From a virus (taxonomy: Duplodnaviria > Caudoviricetes): a stretch of 38,957 nucleotides of DNA. Shown here piece by piece: positions 498 to 33,077 of this stretch. Made by a program: the position numbers and the translations under genes. The stretch is from IMG/VR virus record IMGVR_UViG_3300022863_000001, positions 1 through 38,957 of that record, one strand, 5' to 3'. Below the pieces are notes generated by a model that saw only the letters and a list, made by a program, of their open reading frames with translations, was not told the origin of the DNA and ran no database searches. Each line of letters opens with the position of its first letter. Within the stretch, counting starts at the first letter, position 1.

Positions 498-534
498 AAA
501 AAAGTGCACTGCATGCTGATTTTTATGGGTAATA

Positions 535-850
535 ATATTCTGTTACGGACTAAGTAGGCACCACTCTTAGATAAAATGGCAGTTCGTAACACAATAATCT
601 GTGGGAAATATTCTGTTACGATATTCTGTTACGGACTAAGTGGGCACCTTATAAGGGAAATTTGACTTTCGTAACAGAATAAACAGAATTTTGCGCTATT
701 GTCGATATATTTTGAAAAGAGAAAAGATAAATTATATATAACAATAGGGAAAACGGGGCATATTCTGTTACGAAATTGTAAATTGCCTATGCAAATCAAT
801 AAGTTGCAGCCGTACACAATATCGTACAGAATAAAAAATATTCTGTTACG
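535..850. repeat. Iteron-like array of ATATTCTGTTACG in an AT-rich intergenic region; candidate replication origin
   Basis: Direct copies at 535, 608, 621, 760, 838; inverted copies at 670-681 (perfect 12-mer), 585-596 (1 mismatch), 811-822 and 823-833 (degenerate); 28-bp near-duplicate at 535-562 and 621-648. Confidence 0.85.
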
Positions 851-912
851 GAGCCCTAAAAGGTTAAAATTTAGCCTCCATCACATACCAAAACTATTTT
901 ATGTGGTCACGC

Positions 913-985
913 AAATAACCATTTACAACGCCAACGGACTGTGCTTATATGGTTCTTATCAAGTATCCTTGCTGAGGAAACTATC
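913..985 (+). promoter_or_regulatory. Early promoter P1 plus leader box CCTTGCTGAGG (967-977)
   Basis: AAATA-N4-TTTACA (922-927), TTATAT at 945-950, same architecture as the promoters at 3412, 6231 and 14622. Confidence 0.7.
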
Positions 986-3413: not shown

Positions 3414-3458
3414 AATAGACGTTTACTAAACCGCATCGCTTGCGGCAATCTTATACCC
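3412..3458 (+). promoter_or_regulatory. Early promoter P4, driving the structured RNA and primase-helicase
   Basis: AAAATAGACGTTTACT (-35 at 3422-3427), CAATCT at 3446-3451; inverted repeat CCGCA-N5-TGCGG (3431-3445) in the spacer. Confidence 0.65.
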
Positions 3459-3540
3459 GACAGCGGGCCAGTGCTGACTCTCCTCTATTACGCAGGAAGA
3501 TTGTCGCACCAACCCCTCAGCAAGGCGAAGGCCCGCTGTC
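3459..3540 (+). ncRNA. Candidate antisense regulatory RNA (conceptually like P1 C4 / P4 CI RNAs)
   Basis: Perfect 11-bp closing stem GACAGCGGGCC/GGCCCGCTGTC, internal hairpin 3471-3509, segment CCCCTCAGCAAGG (3513-3525) complementary to four RBS regions; begins at the predicted start site of P4. Confidence 0.7.
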
Positions 3541-3581
3541 ACCTAGTTCGCCGTGCTGGGGTCAAGTCTGAGGGGCTCAAG

Positions 3582-5684
3582 TTGACAAACAGTAATGCTA
3601 CACGTGAGAAGAAACTCGCGGAGGACAAACTCATATCTTCTGGTCTGACTGGTGCGGACGCGGGACTATTGAACCTGTCAGCTCATACAGGACCGAATGT
3701 GGCCACTATGAGTTCGTCCTTCCGCCAGTTGCCTGCGCTCAAAATCCCGTATTTCAATATCGACGGAACGCCGATGCGGCCTTGGCCTAAGCATCCTCAG
3801 TTCTACCGTATCAGGTATCTTGAAGAGCCGAAGGATTATAAGGCGCTTAAAGGTGAAAAGCCACAACGTTATGGTCAACCTGCCGAGACTGGTGTTGCTG
3901 CCTACTTCCCGCTCAACGCAGACTGGCAGTCCATTGCCAAGGATAAAGAGCGACCCATCATTATAACCGAGGGAGAATTGAAGGCAGCCAAGGCTTGTAA
4001 AGAGGGCTTTGCCTGCATCGGTCTCGGCGGCGTGTACAGCTTCAAGTCCTCAAGATATGGCGTCACATTCCTGCCTTGTCTTGATAAAGAAGTGGACTGG
4101 GTTGGTCGTCATGTGTTTGTCTGCTATGACAGCGACTTCCGCTCCAATCAAATGGTCTGCGCTGCTTTGGTTGAGCTGTGTGAAGAGCTTATGGAACGCG
4201 GGGCTTTCCCTCATGTTGTATGCTTACCTGACGTCATTGCCGGCGGCAAGACCGGGCTTGATGACTTCCTTGTTGCACAAGGTTCCAAAGAATTTACGAT
4301 GCTGCTTGAAGGAGCTTCGCCTTTAACACTGGCCAAGCCACTCTTTGAAATGAATAAGGGATTGGTTTATGTCAGAGACCCAGGTCTTGTGCTTGTTAAA
4401 AACCTTGGTCAGAAACTGGCACCTGCTGCATTTAAGGACCATGTGTACGCCAACCAAAATGTCGGCGAATATGTTTTTGGCCGTGATGGTGCAATCTCTT
4501 TAAGGAAAACATCTGCAGCAGGCTCTTGGCTTAAGTGGCCACTACGGTCCGAGGCTGCAAGGCTGACATACAAACCAGGCGCTGAGCGGCTTATCACAAC
4601 AGGGCAGGATTTGCCTGACTACAACCTTTGGTCTGGCTGGGGCTGCCAGCCTGAGAAGGGCGACGCTTCGCAATTCGTCAAGTTGGTAGACCATATCTTT
4701 ACCGGCGCTGAGAAGGGCGCCAAGGAGTGGTTCCTCAGTTGGTTGGCATATCCAATCAAATACCCAGGCGTCAAGCTTTACAGCTCTGTCGTCATTCATG
4801 GCATCAAGCACGGCACCGGTAAGTCATTGCTGGCCTATACAATGCAGGGGATTTATGGAAAGAACTTCACAGAGCTTAACCAGCGAGACTTGCACTCAGG
4901 GTTCAACGAGTGGGCAGAGTGCAAGCAGTTCGTCCTCGCCGACGATGTCACTGGTTCTAACAAACGTGAAGACGCGGACATTCTTAAAAAACTTATTACT
5001 CAAAAAACCATGCGCATCAATCAGAAATACGTACCTTCATACGAGGTGCCCGATGTGCTCAACTATTATTTCACTTCCAACCAACCTGACGCTGTGTTCC
5101 TTGAAGACGACGACAGACGATACTTCATCCATGAAGTTCGAGTGCCACCGTTGCTTGACGACTTTTACACTGAGTATGATTTGTGGCTTGAGTCAGGAGA
5201 AGGATACAGAACTGTCTTCCAATACCTGCTCGACTATGACACAGGAGACTTCAACCCGGCAGCCAGAGCCTTCCACACCTCAGCCAAAGACAGGATGGTA
5301 AGCGATGTCAAGTCTGACCTCGGTGCATTTGTTGCTAAACTTATCTCTGACCCGGACACGGTACTCCGAGTGGGCGAAAGCGCTGTTCTTGGAGATTTGT
5401 TCACGAACAAACAACTCCTTTCTATTTATGACCCAACGGGGCGGACTGGAACAACTGCAAATGGACTGGGACGAGAACTGCGAAGAGCCGGAGTGCCGCA
5501 AGTTCTGGATGGAAAAGTTGTCAGAGCTGGGCTTAGCGCCGACCGTTATTATATCCTTCGAGGCCAAACCAAGTGGCTTACCTCAGACCTCGCAGCAGTG
5601 ACGCGCTATGTCAACCAGCTTCAGTCTGGTATGACACAAGACGAGACACAACCTCAACCCAAAGCCAGAAGAAAGAAATACTGA
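3582..5684 (+). CDS. DNA primase-helicase (DUF3854-like TOPRIM domain plus SF3/D5-like helicase)
   Basis: ITEGELKAA, GLGGV, YDSD, KTGLDDFL primase motifs; Walker A HGTGKS, Walker B VLADD, FTSN; TTG start chosen for GAGGGG RBS. Confidence 0.88.
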   Translation: MTNSNATREKKLAEDKLISSGLTGADAGLLNLSAHTGPNVATMSSSFRQLPALKIPYFNIDGTPMRPWPKHPQFYRIRYLEEPKDYKALKGEKPQRYGQPAETGVAAYFPLNADWQSIAKDKERPIIITEGELKAAKACKEGFACIGLGGVYSFKSSRYGVTFLPCLDKEVDWVGRHVFVCYDSDFRSNQMVCAALVELCEELMERGAFPHVVCLPDVIAGGKTGLDDFLVAQGSKEFTMLLEGASPLTLAKPLFEMNKGLVYVRDPGLVLVKNLGQKLAPAAFKDHVYANQNVGEYVFGRDGAISLRKTSAAGSWLKWPLRSEAARLTYKPGAERLITTGQDLPDYNLWSGWGCQPEKGDASQFVKLVDHIFTGAEKGAKEWFLSWLAYPIKYPGVKLYSSVVIHGIKHGTGKSLLAYTMQGIYGKNFTELNQRDLHSGFNEWAECKQFVLADDVTGSNKREDADILKKLITQKTMRINQKYVPSYEVPDVLNYYFTSNQPDAVFLEDDDRRYFIHEVRVPPLLDDFYTEYDLWLESGEGYRTVFQYLLDYDTGDFNPAARAFHTSAKDRMVSDVKSDLGAFVAKLISDPDTVLRVGESAVLGDLFTNKQLLSIYDPTGRTGTTANGLGRELRRAGVPQVLDGKVVRAGLSADRYYILRGQTKWLTSDLAAVTRYVNQLQSGMTQDETQPQPKARRKKY

Positions 5685-6231: not shown

Positions 6232-6302
6232 AAATAATCGTTTACAAGTGCACATTTGTGAGTTACAACTTAAATCACGACAACTTGCTGAGGGAAAAAA
6301 TC
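6231..6302 (+). promoter_or_regulatory. Early promoter P2 plus leader box CTTGCTGAGGG (6284-6294)
   Basis: AAAATAATCGTTTACAAGTG (-35 at 6241-6246), TACAAC at 6264-6269. Confidence 0.7.
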
Positions 6303-6701
6303 ATGTCTAAGGAAACCAAGCCGGAAGTATTTCCGAAGGAAATGGGCACGTGTGCCGACCTTCTTTGGAAGCTAGACCAAGAGCGTAAAGCCATTATCAA
6401 AAAGGCTGAGGCCATTGAGACCAGACAGGTTGCTTTACGTAAACACATCATTGACAACTTGCCTAAGTCCAAAGCCACTGGTGTTGCCGGTCGGTTAGCT
6501 CGCGTCAAGATTGACGTGAAGGAAATTCTCCAAGCCAAGGACTGGGACAAGGTCTATAAGTACATTCTTAAAGTCAAGCGCCCTGACTTGCTTCAGCGTC
6601 GTTTGTCTGAAGGTGCCATCAACGAAATTATCGAAGCAGGGCATGATGTGCCAGGTGTTGAGGTGTTTCGCTGCAAGGTTGTGTCGCTCGGTAAAATTTA
6701 A
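6303..6701 (+). CDS. Conserved phage replication-module protein (coiled coil plus C-terminal VPGV motif)
   Basis: GAGGG RBS; DWDKVYKYI...DLLQRRLS...VPGV pattern common in phage replication clusters. Confidence 0.75.
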   Translation: MSKETKPEVFPKEMGTCADLLWKLDQERKAIIKKAEAIETRQVALRKHIIDNLPKSKATGVAGRLARVKIDVKEILQAKDWDKVYKYILKVKRPDLLQRRLSEGAINEIIEAGHDVPGVEVFRCKVVSLGKI

Positions 6702-9450: not shown

Positions 9451-11382
9451 ATGAAAGCGCCAGAGGTTGAAACCATCGATTTTGAAACTGAAGCCATTGA
9501 TGGCCACCCTCGGCACCCGCCAGTTCCTGTTGGCGTGTCTATCATTCGTCCAGGTGACCGCAACTCAAAGTATTGGGCTTGGGGACATCCGTCAGGTAAT
9601 AACTGCACCAAAGCACAGGCAAGGAAAGCTTTGCAGGAATGCTGGTCGTCTGGGCGCCCTATCCTTTGCCATAATGCCAAGTTTGACCTAGATGTTGCTC
9701 AGGTACACATGGACCTACCTATGCCGCGGTGGGAACTGCTGCATGATACCATGTTCCTCATTTTTATGAATGACCCATACGGCGACTTAGGTTTGAAACC
9801 GGTAGCTGAGCAGCTACTTAATATGAAGCCAGAGGAACGTGATGCTATCCGTGATTGGCTCATTGAAAACAAGTTCATTCCAAAAAATGCCAAGAAAGTA
9901 GGCCACCTGATATGCAAGGTGCCCGGCGATATTGTAGGAGCGTATGCCAATGGCGACACTATACGAACTCTCAAACTATTCAAAAAGCTCTATACGTCCA
10001 TCATCGCCAGAGGAATGGGAACGGCTTATGACCGCGAACGACGCTTGCTCCCTATTCTGCTTCGAAACGAGGGCCCAGGTATCCGAGCAGACGTTGGCTT
10101 CCTTGAGACCGCTTGGAAATCTTCGGCAACTGCTTTTCAGACTTGCGACAAATGGTTGCAAAGGGTTCTCAAAACCAAAGACCTAAATGTTGACAGCGAT
10201 GCAGAGTTGGTCCAGGCTCTTATTAAGTCAGGTAAGGCAGACGAGGACAAGTTCCTGTTGACGCCTAAGGGCCAAATCAGCGCAGACAAAGAAAGCTTGC
10301 TGGGCGCTGTCTCAGACCCTCGTGTCTTGCAGGTTTTGCAATACCGCTCAAAACTTGGCACCTCAGCCTCAACCTTTATCGGACCATGGCTCGAGGAAGC
10401 AACCAGGACAGGCGGCACAGTGCATCCAAGTTGGAACCAGGTACGCCAACCAGGGTCCAAGAAGTTCTCTGATGGCGCTCGCACAGGACGCTTGTCAGCC
10501 TCACGGTTTATGAACGCCCCTAAGGAAGTGGAAGAGGGCAGCGGGTATGAGCTTCCAACGTTTATTGGCTTGCCTCAACTACCTAATGTGCGCATGTGTT
10601 TGCTACCAGACAAAGGCCACCGGTGGGGTAAGCGAGATTATTCCCAGCAAGAGCTTCGTGTTCTTGGCCATTTCGAGGATGGTCTACTATTGGACAAATA
10701 CAATGAGACGCCGGACCTAGACATTCATCTTTTTGCTGCTAAACTGGTTACCGAACTGCTTGGCATTATGGTTCCTGATGAAAAAGAACTGAAGCGCTGG
10801 CGTACCAAGATGAAGACAATCGGCTTTGGCATTCTTTATGGCATGGGTCTTGGTGCCTTGGCTGAGAGAATGGATGTCGACGTCAAGACAGCGCAACGTC
10901 TCAAGAATGCCTATCTCGCCGTCTTCCCTGGCCTTAAGGAATTGCAAGACGACTTGAAAGCCAGAGGCCAGGCAAACCTACCTATGACAACCTGGGGCGG
11001 CAGACAGTACCTTGTTGAACCTCCTAAATTTATTGAGTCTCGTGGTCGTGTGTGCACCTTTGAATATAAGCTATTTAACTATCTCATTCAAGGTTCCTCT
11101 GCCGACTGCACCAAGGAAGCAATCATCCGTTATGACGACGTTAAAAAGAACGGACGTTTTCTTGTTACAGTCCACGATGAAATCAGCATCAGTGCTGAAC
11201 CAGGCGCCATGGAAGAGGAAATGGAAATCCTTAAAGATGTAATGGCTTCAGTTGAGTTTGATGTGCCTATGTTATCTGATGGAGCTACTGGCAAAAGCTG
11301 GGGCGCTTTGAAATCATTTAAGGATGCTGAGCAAAGAGAGTGGCTTGATAAACAACGAACTGCAACCAAGCGACCTAAATAA
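9451..11382 (+). CDS. polA: Family A DNA polymerase with 3'-5' exonuclease
   Basis: DFET, HNAKFD exo motifs; TGRLS; motif A DYSQQELR; motif B RTKMKTIGFGILYG; motif C VHDE. Confidence 0.96.
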   Translation: MKAPEVETIDFETEAIDGHPRHPPVPVGVSIIRPGDRNSKYWAWGHPSGNNCTKAQARKALQECWSSGRPILCHNAKFDLDVAQVHMDLPMPRWELLHDTMFLIFMNDPYGDLGLKPVAEQLLNMKPEERDAIRDWLIENKFIPKNAKKVGHLICKVPGDIVGAYANGDTIRTLKLFKKLYTSIIARGMGTAYDRERRLLPILLRNEGPGIRADVGFLETAWKSSATAFQTCDKWLQRVLKTKDLNVDSDAELVQALIKSGKADEDKFLLTPKGQISADKESLLGAVSDPRVLQVLQYRSKLGTSASTFIGPWLEEATRTGGTVHPSWNQVRQPGSKKFSDGARTGRLSASRFMNAPKEVEEGSGYELPTFIGLPQLPNVRMCLLPDKGHRWGKRDYSQQELRVLGHFEDGLLLDKYNETPDLDIHLFAAKLVTELLGIMVPDEKELKRWRTKMKTIGFGILYGMGLGALAERMDVDVKTAQRLKNAYLAVFPGLKELQDDLKARGQANLPMTTWGGRQYLVEPPKFIESRGRVCTFEYKLFNYLIQGSSADCTKEAIIRYDDVKKNGRFLVTVHDEISISAEPGAMEEEMEILKDVMASVEFDVPMLSDGATGKSWGALKSFKDAEQREWLDKQRTATKRPK

Positions 11383-14622: not shown

Positions 14623-14696
14623 AAATAGCCGTTTACAAGTGGTCTGTGATGTGTATATAATCATCACATCAAGTCAACCTTGCTGAGGTTCATCAA
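14622..14696 (+). promoter_or_regulatory. Early promoter P3 plus leader box CCTTGCTGAGG (14678-14688)
   Basis: AAAATAGCCGTTTACAAGTG (-35 at 14632-14637), TATAAT at 14656-14661. Confidence 0.8.
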
Positions 14697-15698
14697 ATGT
14701 CTACCGACCTGTTCTTAGGGCAACCTTTTCGCCTTAACTTTAGCGAAAAAGAAACGCCAAACCGCTCCAAAGGTTTTCCTGCCGTTGTCTTTGCGATGAA
14801 TGGCAGTTATGTTTCCGTTGTTTACCAGTCTGCCAAAGGTATTAAGACAATGGAAATCCTGCGGCGCGACTGGATGAGCATGGCCTTTCCTGACTGCACC
14901 ATGTATCACACCAAGGCCATATATGATGAGTTCCGCTCCGGGTTCCCTCTTGATGAGGACTGGAGCAAGGACGCTTTAAGACAAGAAGCAATTTCCAAAG
15001 CACCAAAGAAAGAACAGACTGCGCAGCCTATCATCCTGCCAGTTGGTCGGACGATGCGGTTTAAAGTGCATGCTGACTTTCACCACAACATTGCCATTGA
15101 GACAAACCATGTCCCTGGCTTTATATTTTTCATTCCAATTCTCGTCGGCGATAAGCTGGAAGTCCAGTCTCTGCCGTCGCGCGAGTTTGAGGGTGACTGG
15201 AAACAGTTGCCATGGTGCCCAGTGCCGAAAGCAGCGGCCTTGGTTCTTGAGTACCTATCTGCTGGAGTACTGAAAGCAACGCCAGAAGCCAAAGATTTTC
15301 TGAGGCAGGCGCTAAACAAGGAGAGTGAAATGGCCGAAGAAATCGATACGACCGCAAAGCCTGTTGAAAAGAAGTCTGCGCCAAAGGCAAAGACCGAAAA
15401 AAAGACAGCGCCGAAAGCCAAAGCAGAAAAGAAACCTGCTGCCAAGGCAAAGACCGAAAAAAAGACAGCGCCTAAGACTGCCAAAGAAACCAAGGCGCCA
15501 AAGGAACGCAAAGAAACTGCTTCAAGCATGTTGCGTGACTTGATTGCCGCTGGAACCCTTACCGACGACCAAATTTTTGCAAAGGTCAAGGCTAAGTACG
15601 ACCTAGGCGACGACAAGCGTTGGTATGTTTCTTGGTATCGCAATGATATGAAAAAGAAGGGTCTGAACCCACCTGCCGCCAAAGAAGCCAAGAAGTAA
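14697..15698 (+). CDS. Protein with histone H1-like Lys/Ala/Pro repeats and small C-terminal helical (possible DNA-binding) domain; internal start at 15330
   Basis: EKKxAPKAKT decapeptide repeats; AAGGAG RBS before in-frame ATG 15330. Confidence 0.75.
   Translation: MSTDLFLGQPFRLNFSEKETPNRSKGFPAVVFAMNGSYVSVVYQSAKGIKTMEILRRDWMSMAFPDCTMYHTKAIYDEFRSGFPLDEDWSKDALRQEAISKAPKKEQTAQPIILPVGRTMRFKVHADFHHNIAIETNHVPGFIFFIPILVGDKLEVQSLPSREFEGDWKQLPWCPVPKAAALVLEYLSAGVLKATPEAKDFLRQALNKESEMAEEIDTTAKPVEKKSAPKAKTEKKTAPKAKAEKKPAAKAKTEKKTAPKTAKETKAPKERKETASSMLRDLIAAGTLTDDQIFAKVKAKYDLGDDKRWYVSWYRNDMKKKGLNPPAAKEAKK
15384..15472 (+). repeat. 29-nt exact direct repeat (15384-15412, 15444-15472) within a 30-nt periodic coding repeat
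   Basis: AAGGCAAAGACCGAAAAAAAGACAGCGCC twice, 60 nt apart. Confidence 0.9.
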
Positions 15699-16131: not shown

Positions 16132-16400
16132 TGTCAGTTGAAAAGACTTTGGCCGAACGAGGTAAGCGTTACGGTGCCTTTGTTGACCATTCCGAAATCT
16201 CGCAAGAGCTTAAAATGGTTATGATGATAACACCAGGCTGGAAGCGGCTTACTTTTGCGCAAAAAGAAAGTCTTGAGATGATACAGCACAAAGTTGCTCG
16301 CATCCTTAACGGCGACCCAAACTATGCAGACAACTGGCATGACATTGGCGGGTATGCCAAACTTGCTGAGGACCTGTGCACGTCGGAGAAAAAGAAATGA
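16131..16400 (+). CDS. DUF6378-like protein
   Basis: TLAERGKRYG.F...KVARILNGDPNYADNWHDIGGYA. Confidence 0.8.
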   Translation: MSVEKTLAERGKRYGAFVDHSEISQELKMVMMITPGWKRLTFAQKESLEMIQHKVARILNGDPNYADNWHDIGGYAKLAEDLCTSEKKK

Positions 16401-32135: not shown

Positions 32136-33077
32136 TTACGACGTGGTCAAGTCAGCGACGATAGCTGAACCAGCTTCGTTGCGTGCTTCAAGCGTATATT
32201 CCACAACAATCGCACCCTTGGTCGCATCGCCGGTCGCTGCAACGTCTTGCGTTGCCATTGGACGGAGATAAGCAAAGGCCCACAACTCAGTCGTGAGAAC
32301 GTGCAAGTCACGGTCACGAGAGAAGCGGTTTGCGATAATGCTGTGTTGGCCAAAGTCCGACACGTAAATGTCGATGGCAGTGTTCAGCGTCTTGTCGCCG
32401 GAGTTGTTGTCAATGCGCGAGACGTTACCGCCGAACGAAGAAACAACCTGCTTGTTGAACGGACCCGCCATAATCAGGTCAGGGTCACCGCCCGCCGTCC
32501 AAGACTGCTGGATAGCAGTCTTGAGCAACGACTCAGTCAACGGACGCTGCGTACCATCGGTTGCAGCCGTCGCAGCGCCACCAGAAGAACCGGTCGCACC
32601 ACGTTGTGTGTTGGTCGTGTACCAGGCATCAAGCGAACGAAGTTGGCGAGCAGTCGTGGAGTTACCCGTGACTTTCGCCTGGTTGCCCGTGGTGCCGGCT
32701 TCCATATCACGACGCAGTTCTTTACCGCGCTTCATGATTTGGTAAACCATTTCATTGGTACGACCTGCTTTATTCACCGCATCCTGGGTCTTAGACACAA
32801 CGACAGTCTTGTAAGCAATCTGGCATTGGTTGTCGACACGGGACGTGAAGGCTGGCGTCGAGTAGGTGTAATCATCACCTTCAAGCTGAGCATTCGAAGA
32901 GCTTGCAGCAGCCAACGTGTCAGTCTGCCATTCGTGCTTCGTTGCATTCGCTTTCGAGGTAGGAATACGACCTAAGAAGGGCGTATCTACAGGCGAGATG
33001 TTGTAGATGGTGTCCATAAGGTCTTCGCGATTACCAATCGCGGAGAAGGTCAGGACGGTGCCGGTTACGATAGTCAT
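32136..33077 (-). CDS. Major capsid protein (DUF5309/SU10-like, HK97 fold)
   Basis: GNREDL.D.IYNISP.DTPF, HEWQTD.L, N.CQI, KELRRDME, Y.SDFG, EYTLE..NE. Confidence 0.93.
   Translation of the reverse strand: MTIVTGTVLTFSAIGNREDLMDTIYNISPVDTPFLGRIPTSKANATKHEWQTDTLAAASSSNAQLEGDDYTYSTPAFTSRVDNQCQIAYKTVVVSKTQDAVNKAGRTNEMVYQIMKRGKELRRDMEAGTTGNQAKVTGNSTTARQLRSLDAWYTTNTQRGATGSSGGAATAATDGTQRPLTESLLKTAIQQSWTAGGDPDLIMAGPFNKQVVSSFGGNVSRIDNNSGDKTLNTAIDIYVSDFGQHSIIANRFSRDRDLHVLTTELWAFAYLRPMATQDVAATGDATKGAIVVEYTLEARNEAGSAIVADLTTS

Follow-up and report, generated by a model that had tools for sequence, protein, structure and literature searches.

A predicted antisense RNA directly upstream of a phage primase gene, with complementary boxes at the ribosome-binding sites of dispersed early operons

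The present analysis suggests that a stable antisense RNA of about 80 to 85 nt is likely encoded directly upstream of the primase-helicase gene in the window, i.e., the whole stretch of 38,957 nt that was analysed. A small RNA is likely because the loop of the element is complementary to the ribosome-binding site (RBS) of the first gene behind each early promoter. In our preferred reading, to which we give a probability of roughly 0.7, the three-helix element is an RNA of ~80 nt whose loop would pair with GCTGAGG on the early-operon RBSs and, as the RNA builds up, silence those operons.

The window is a complete 39-kb phage genome with direct terminal repeats, and identical DNA is present in peat metagenomes and in one peat metatranscriptome. 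Its plus strand carries the early, replication, and nucleotide genes (DenV-like glycosylase, primase, PolA, exonucleases, helicase, thymidylate synthase, dCMP deaminase, and DHFR), and its minus strand carries the terminase, portal, capsid, tail, and lysis genes. A PHROGs scan of 57 window ORFs gave no integrase, repressor, or RNA polymerase. Four plus-strand gene blocks are each headed by a TTTAC promoter-like site (922, 3422, 6241, and 14632). The features of the window are as follows.

922..951, plus strand: predicted promoter P1 of the first early operon, a promoter-like TTTACA site
967..977, plus strand: putative trans box, 11-nt perfect complement on the Shine-Dalgarno (SD) of ORF 986-1351 (no PHROG or Pfam family)
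3422..3451, plus strand: predicted promoter P4; -35 TTTACT, 18-nt spacer, weak -10 CAATCT, predicted +1 at 3459
3459..3543, plus strand: predicted antisense RNA; closing helix 3459-3469/3530-3540, variable inner hairpin 3471-3509, seed hairpin, 3' ACC
3501..3505, plus strand: predicted second pairing segment, complementary to 3584-3588 at the primase start; weak in the window, covarying in relatives
3515..3523, plus strand: seed loop CCUCAGCAA, nearly unchanged across the family; in relatives a covarying 4-bp hairpin closes it, in the window only 2-3 bp
3555..3561, plus strand: putative cis leader box 1, GCTGGGG, missed in the earlier note; in relatives often a hairpin loop
3568..3575, plus strand: putative cis leader box 2, primase SD, 8-nt perfect complement
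3582..5684, plus strand: primase-helicase (DUF3854 + DUF5906), 700 aa, TTG start, the proposed cis target
6241..6269, plus strand: predicted promoter P2 of the DNA polymerase/exonuclease/helicase operon, a TTTACA site
6284..6294, plus strand: putative trans box, 11-nt perfect complement on the SD of ORF 6303-6701 (weak Gp157-like match, below cut-off)
14632..14661, plus strand: predicted promoter P3 of the nucleotide-metabolism operon, a TTTACA site
14678..14688, plus strand: putative trans box, 11-nt perfect complement on the SD of ORF 14697-15698
16362..16371, plus strand: 10-nt complement before the thymidylate synthase gene, a doubtful target

The minimum free energy (MFE) structure of the element consists of the 11-bp stem and the inner hairpin, both as the earlier note had drawn them, and at −37.1 kcal/mol (z −4.05) it was equalled in stability by 0 of 200 shuffles. 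The ACC described there directly after the stem was located at 3541-3543. The proposed RNA start at P4 fared less evenly. The spacing in the family backs this start site, as 48 of 59 copies have 35-37 nt between the -35 motif and the stem, but the window's own -10 is weak, its CAATCT fitting the consensus as poorly as the -10 boxes of P1 and P2 do. A metatranscriptome contig covering 3215-3818 places the region in an RNA library and is silent on ends, strand, and level. Depth of this contig over the element was 14.6 versus 2.6-3 in the next contigs, which is no measure of expression level (contigs of one metatranscriptome, small-share runs left out). The YUNR U-turn motif, known from antisense recognition loops, is matched by the loop (CUCA, window 3516-3519) as well as by the box (CUGA), and the CCUC of the loop is similar to the 16S anti-SD.

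All perfect complements reported in the earlier note were recovered (11 nt at each of the three trans boxes, 10 nt before the thymidylate synthase gene, and 8 nt at the primase). The three 11-mers sit on GAGG, 8-9 nt before the ATG codons at 986, 6303, and 14697, and each lies behind a TTTACA promoter-like site. The 10-nt complement is real as a match, but it makes a doubtful target, being promoter-less and within the upstream ORF. Since the primase starts at the TTG at 3582, the 8-nt box corresponds to the primase SD; a further pairing absent from the earlier account, 3501-3505 with 3584-3588, spans this TTG. Complements of at least 10 nt number four on the plus strand and zero on the minus strand, compared with a mean of 0.3 and a maximum of 3 in 200 third-order Markov simulations. 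A search of the window allowing 3 mismatches showed no excess (16 versus 12.6 expected); thus, the signal is confined to near-perfect sites. When 158 ATG starts were ranked by duplex energy, the three targets took ranks 3, 4, and 8, with two late-region plus-strand small-ORF sites ahead of them. Therefore, duplex energy alone is insufficient to pick out the targets. In predicted folds, the P1 box forms a hairpin hiding its own SD, the cis boxes and the P3 box are paired and unexposed, and the leader MFE hides the primase RBS and start.

The element belongs to a family that sits before DUF3854/DUF5906 primase-helicase genes. We collected 59 distinct copies (including five GTDB contigs and locus L074), among them copies in the cultured lytic phages AXL3 and PW916. 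The closest annotated primases are those of PW916, AXL3, and MW202621 (50-52% identity), and the upstream arrangement is equal in all three; between AXL3 and PW916, the stem shows one compensatory pair difference. The seed lies within a long stem in 64 of 82 primase loci, these comprising 78 of 80 IMG/VR loci (two without upstream DNA were dropped), the window, and three records. A further set of metagenome loci, in part shared with the first, had the RNA in 14 of 53 loci with upstream DNA, and hence it is dispensable in the wider primase family. Sorted by primase identity, it was found in 11 of 21 of these loci at ≥50% and in 3 of 32 below 50%. Among these RNA-carrying loci, nine had at least 8 kb of downstream DNA, and trans RBS boxes were present in seven of the nine. 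The standard loop is scattered over the primase tree with many interspersed losses.

The order of parts is conserved in the family: a TTTAC promoter, a closing stem from +1, a hairpin with loop CCUCAGCAA, and ACC, the last directly after the stem in 44 of 59 copies. In an alignment that was itself fitted to the model, 96.8% of the closing helix is paired, against 28-43% in slid controls, and each of the eight modelled pairs shows two-sided changes. Of 136 possible pairs in 34 representatives, the seed hairpin, a covarying 4-bp stem that closes CCUCAGCAA, forms 112, a value reached in 0 of 20,000 shuffles and compared with 30-43% in slid controls. The middle hairpin changes freely between copies. 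Only 8 of 59 copies leave the primase frame open across the element, so the element is not coding. Our model of the family, R1, has only eight pairs and misses divergent members (e.g., L022, L029, L052, L056, L059, L074, and L087); its lack of matches in 26 genomes, in a search without a positive control, is therefore no proof of absence. A loose pattern scan was rejected as a family finder, as noise dominated its output, with stem and primase both missing from 86 of 120 loci.

Several loci depart from the common arrangement. At L012 (2901-3471), L023, and L040, 500-600 nt separate the RNA leader from the primase, and the insert resembles a small ORF. At L064 (9882-9968), L258, and L260, the loop is standard, the cis leader boxes are missing, the primase starts ~30 nt after the RNA, and the trans boxes are kept. 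Tandem imperfect repeats of ~25 nt replace the RNA directly 5' of the primase at L075 (about 9670-10000). Among more distant primase relatives, promoter-proximal hairpins with other seeds and matching downstream boxes occur at L083 (9791-9876), L098 (6334-6431), L076 (9890-9951), L077 (3073-3140), and L256 (about 6320-6420), and these are possibly further specificity groups. Back-to-back TTTACA promoters form an inverted repeat at L061 and L094 (~1.7 and ~2.4 kb 5' of the primase, respectively) and at L069 (9677); at L069, the divergent promoter beside the RNA likewise leads to a boxed RBS.

The trans boxes of the window recur in relatives. Across 32 representative loci, 42 of 50 promoter-proximal RBSs have GCT directly in front of GAGG, as do 42 of 457 other RBSs, one of these 84 trans sites being the RNA's own seed on the other strand (L017), which is included in the count. 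In 23 control loci, the corresponding values were 0 of 12 and 4 of 222. Box-flanking bases fit the cognate RNA more closely than other RNAs (2.36 versus 1.94; 181 of 100,000 permutations, which, as in all our permutation tests, leave relatedness among loci in place). The arrangement TGCTGAGG-N5-11-ATG is found in 35 of 38 genomes with the RNA, some counts taking in the cis box, and the three genomes that lack it are exactly the three with an altered loop. Relatives without the standard RNA have it in only 2 of 21 cases, at one site each. For the two CCUCAGCC genomes, GGCTGAGG was predicted, and it was found highest there (4 rows each; 0-3 in the others), the two forming one clade; in G037, the clearest promoter-proximal box is CGCTGAGG, against the expected GGCTGAGG. 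In L074, L083, and L076, promoter-proximal or RBS boxes match the own variant sequence (one, one, and two per complete genome, respectively), and the variants of L074 and L062 leave the SD usable. Thus, the seed and its unlinked targets co-occur and covary, with few independent loop changes; L062, L059, and L282 form one clade. Behind 162 promoter-like sites, the box lies in sense orientation 63 times and in antisense orientation twice, 7-39 nt after the -10 and never over the promoter core, which argues for a site read at the RNA level and makes a DNA operator unlikely.

A second class of putative targets was seen in ~20 loci beyond L019 (12912), L036 (12149), L006 (12849), and L005 (8140), and none was found in the window. 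Its promoter usually lies right 3' of the primase. The box occupies +1 to +8 within a 5' hairpin, and ~45 nt separate it from the downstream RBS, which belongs to a small, conserved ORF rich in Lys and Ala. Because of this distance, the class goes beyond simple occlusion, and it may act through termination or decay. The leaders of this class in L005 and L006 are predicted to pair with both RNA segments (about −47 kcal/mol) and carry their own anti-box. We also considered these post-primase promoter-plus-box elements as decoy RNAs and rejected the idea, as they are the leaders of the small Lys/Ala-rich ORF.

In cis, 56 of 59 primase leaders carry a box, and 46 carry two. Box 1 forms an unpaired hairpin loop in the MFE folds of 18 of 34 leaders (background 8%) and box 2 in 9 of 28; neither box does so in the window. 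The second segment, 5' of the loop, pairs with its own leader at −15.8 kcal/mol and with non-cognate leaders at −11.5 kcal/mol (0 of 100,000 permutations). The cognate leader is the best-ranked partner for only 3 of 34 RNAs, and the second segment beats shuffles of its own leader at p≤0.05 in only 17 of 34. It often falls on the primase SD or start. At L029, the loop and both cis boxes are altered together. Judged from sequence comparison, the second RNA segment covaries with the primase leader in a lineage-specific manner. The earlier note had proposed that a single small RNA acts on several dispersed operons in trans, and had looked to related phages for seed and target boxes changing together. 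Both are supported in the family, where the helices covary and seed and boxes change in concert; covariation, joint presence and absence, and sense-only boxes support predicted RNA-RNA pairing in cis and in trans.

We envision the following course. Host RNA polymerase would initiate at +1 (3459) from P4, and the RNA would be freed just past the stem, at the ACC, by termination or trimming. As covariation suggests, the CCUCAGCAA loop would kiss leader box 1 first and box 2 next, and the second segment would then zip across the primase start. The same loop would meet the P1, P2, and P3 boxes in trans, covering GAGG and blocking initiation of the first gene, and polarity could extend the block to the rest of each operon. 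If the pairing takes place, repression would be its probable effect, and we hold this with good confidence. The outcome, the least certain step, may be delayed negative feedback, in which the RNA serves as a timer and turns off early and replication genes with no protein repressor involved; immunity against later-arriving relatives is a possible side effect. The timer role is favoured, since the loop is nearly invariant across hosts, unlike immunity seeds.

The same RNA and pairing could instead serve mainly immunity or a carrier state, keeping a non-integrated genome quiet and excluding relatives as CI does for P4. C4 and CI are reported to serve immunity (PMC5320573, PMC4825925), no protein repressor was detected here, and AXL3, described as virulent, has a latent period of about 2.5 h and gave resistant colonies that were transiently PCR-positive, and its authors consider that pseudolysogeny may be possible (PMC7504290). 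However, PW916, which has this RNA too, is described as lytic with a latency of 5 min (PMC9414467), so slow growth is no family trait. Furthermore, a search for three protein types, Tyr integrase, S24 repressor peptidase, and ParA, found none of them in 38 genomes, no isolate prophage occurs among 13 GTDB matches, which are all MAG contigs of 3-59 kb, and the loop is almost invariant over the primase tree, whereas the immunity seeds of P1 and P7 are reported to diverge (PMC5320573). We therefore consider a main role in immunity unlikely. It is also conceivable that the pairing activates or processes its targets, the RNA opening weak leader hairpins, guiding a nuclease, or protecting 5' ends. 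The predicted hiding of the P1 SD and of the primase RBS and start would fit such a role, as would the +1 box class in its 5' hairpin far from the RBS, and SviR is reported to alter the processing of PLE transcripts (10.1101/2022.04.08.487710). The geometry of the RBS class is that of repression, though, with a duplex spanning GAGG and a second segment over the primase SD or start, and activation appears quite improbable.

An alternative already raised in the earlier note takes the box as a protein site. It could be a DNA operator, CCT-N5-AGG being palindromic in the window, or an RNA site of a phage translational repressor, with the hairpin as a cis leader or decoy, and a protein site would likewise be conserved and at RBSs. 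The palindrome, however, is not kept in the boxes of relatives; the 63-to-2 orientation at variable distance and the empty promoter core speak poorly for an operator. A decoy would be expected in the same sense as the sites, but the element carries their complement, and the second segment covaries with the leader by lineage. We regard a protein site as very improbable. Hardly credible is the view that GCTGAGG is a mere preferred SD or that the element is coding or due to chance. GAGG is an ordinary SD core, and in the window an open frame from GTG 3471 crosses the element; but GCT-GAGG is rare in the control loci and near-absent in relatives without the RNA, and the primase frame seldom stays open through the element in other copies.

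Our preferred RNA repressor resembles known antisense RNAs without matching them. Rfam yielded no relevant match, and membership in the C4 family, which the earlier note had considered, was not upheld: the Rfam C4 model (RF01695, clan CL00128) had no match in the window or eight relatives (E≤1), nor in five more (gathering score), and found the positive controls P1 C4 and P4 CI at 69 and 75 bits. The c4-a1b1 and isrK models likewise had no match in the window or eight relatives (E≤1), and R1 had none in the P1 and P4 stretches. With C4 of P1/P7 (targets RF03163), the family shares ~80 nt, a long closing helix followed by ACC, a hairpin-loop seed, a three-stem junction, and two pairing segments whose bipartite target follows closely downstream and overlaps the RBS, the last weak in the window. 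In contrast to C4, the inner hairpin is variable rather than conserved, the seed is other, and a fixed tetraloop hairpin is missing. The second segment lies 5' of the loop seed, and the predicted targets include dispersed operons. The upstream a1/b1 (seqA) leader target of C4 is absent, as the stem lies 35-37 nt after the -35 motif in most copies and leaves no upstream leader. Because the stem starts at the predicted +1, the anatomy does not demand RNase P processing; the ACC is compatible with RNase P acting on read-through transcripts, the 5' end coinciding with the predicted +1. Moreover, C4 controls the icd/kil-antirepressor immunity operon of a temperate phage or satellite, whereas the next gene here is a primase, in carriers without a detected repressor or integrase.

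P4 CI (seqA/seqB/seqC), which is reported to repress replication genes by antisense pairing without a protein repressor (PMC4825925), is alike as an antisense RNA heading an operon with the primase-helicase. It is processed from within the leader and pairs with upstream and downstream sites of its own operon, leading to termination. In contrast, the RNA of the present family lies directly 5' of the primase, both cis boxes are downstream, boxes occur at other promoters, and the carriers are autonomous tailed phages. SviR of the Vibrio cholerae PLE satellites is a small RNA reported to pair with the 5' UTRs of several own operons (10.1101/2022.04.08.487710), and multi-operon control by one small RNA is thus not unprecedented. 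Compared by description only, SviR is satellite-borne and also targets the helper phage, whereas our family has an invariant loop and a dedicated SD box per operon. An ONT-cappable-seq study of six Pseudomonas phages describes 5' UTR RNA candidates, one of them, likened here by description only, upstream of the PAK_P3 primase/helicase with its mechanism unassigned (10.1101/2023.10.13.562163).

Our literature searches, one of them swamped by unrelated matches, found no description of the present RNA. Text passages and supplement files 3-6 of Fremin 2023 (PMC10690425) gave no match, and the motif may be among its 10,006 unannotated candidates. The available portions of the AXL3 and PW916 papers (PMC7504290, PMC9414467) hold no mention of promoters or non-coding elements. 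From these comparisons, the element would represent a real, conserved, apparently undescribed antisense RNA family that is C4/CI-like and yet a member of neither. What appears new relative to C4 and CI is a putative dispersed regulon in phages without a detected integrase or CI-type repressor (0 of 38).

A wider and more tentative reading, to which we give slightly less than even odds, is that a single RNA master repressor runs the early programme of a widespread autonomous phage group, possibly with a repressor-free carrier state. If true, one invariant loop would read a box in the SD of every early operon, i.e., an RNA repressor-operator regulon; since the loop is shared, unrelated carriers that infect the same cell would be silenced by the RNA of one phage as well. 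The family bears on how lytic phages that encode neither an RNA polymerase nor a repressor shut off early genes and on how some phages enter pseudolysogeny, and it offers a concrete candidate mechanism, an RNA-only regulon with natural compensatory variants, testable in cultured AXL3 and PW916. Should it confer immunity or carrier states, it would be relevant to the therapeutic use of such phages, and the 80-nt loop-and-box pair is a potential compact regulatory part.

Two observations concern the genome at large. Between the head of the late strand and P1 (window 531-852), a TATTCTGTTACG-type repeat occurs in five direct and two inverted copies, and these repeats are likely replication-origin iterons for the primase-helicase. 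The capsid protein of the window (32136-33077) resembles those of tf- and Bjorn-like Pseudomonas phages, whereas tape-measure tails are present in AXL3 and PW916. The RNA-primase module, together with replication genes, passes between virion types (siphovirus and podovirus-like).
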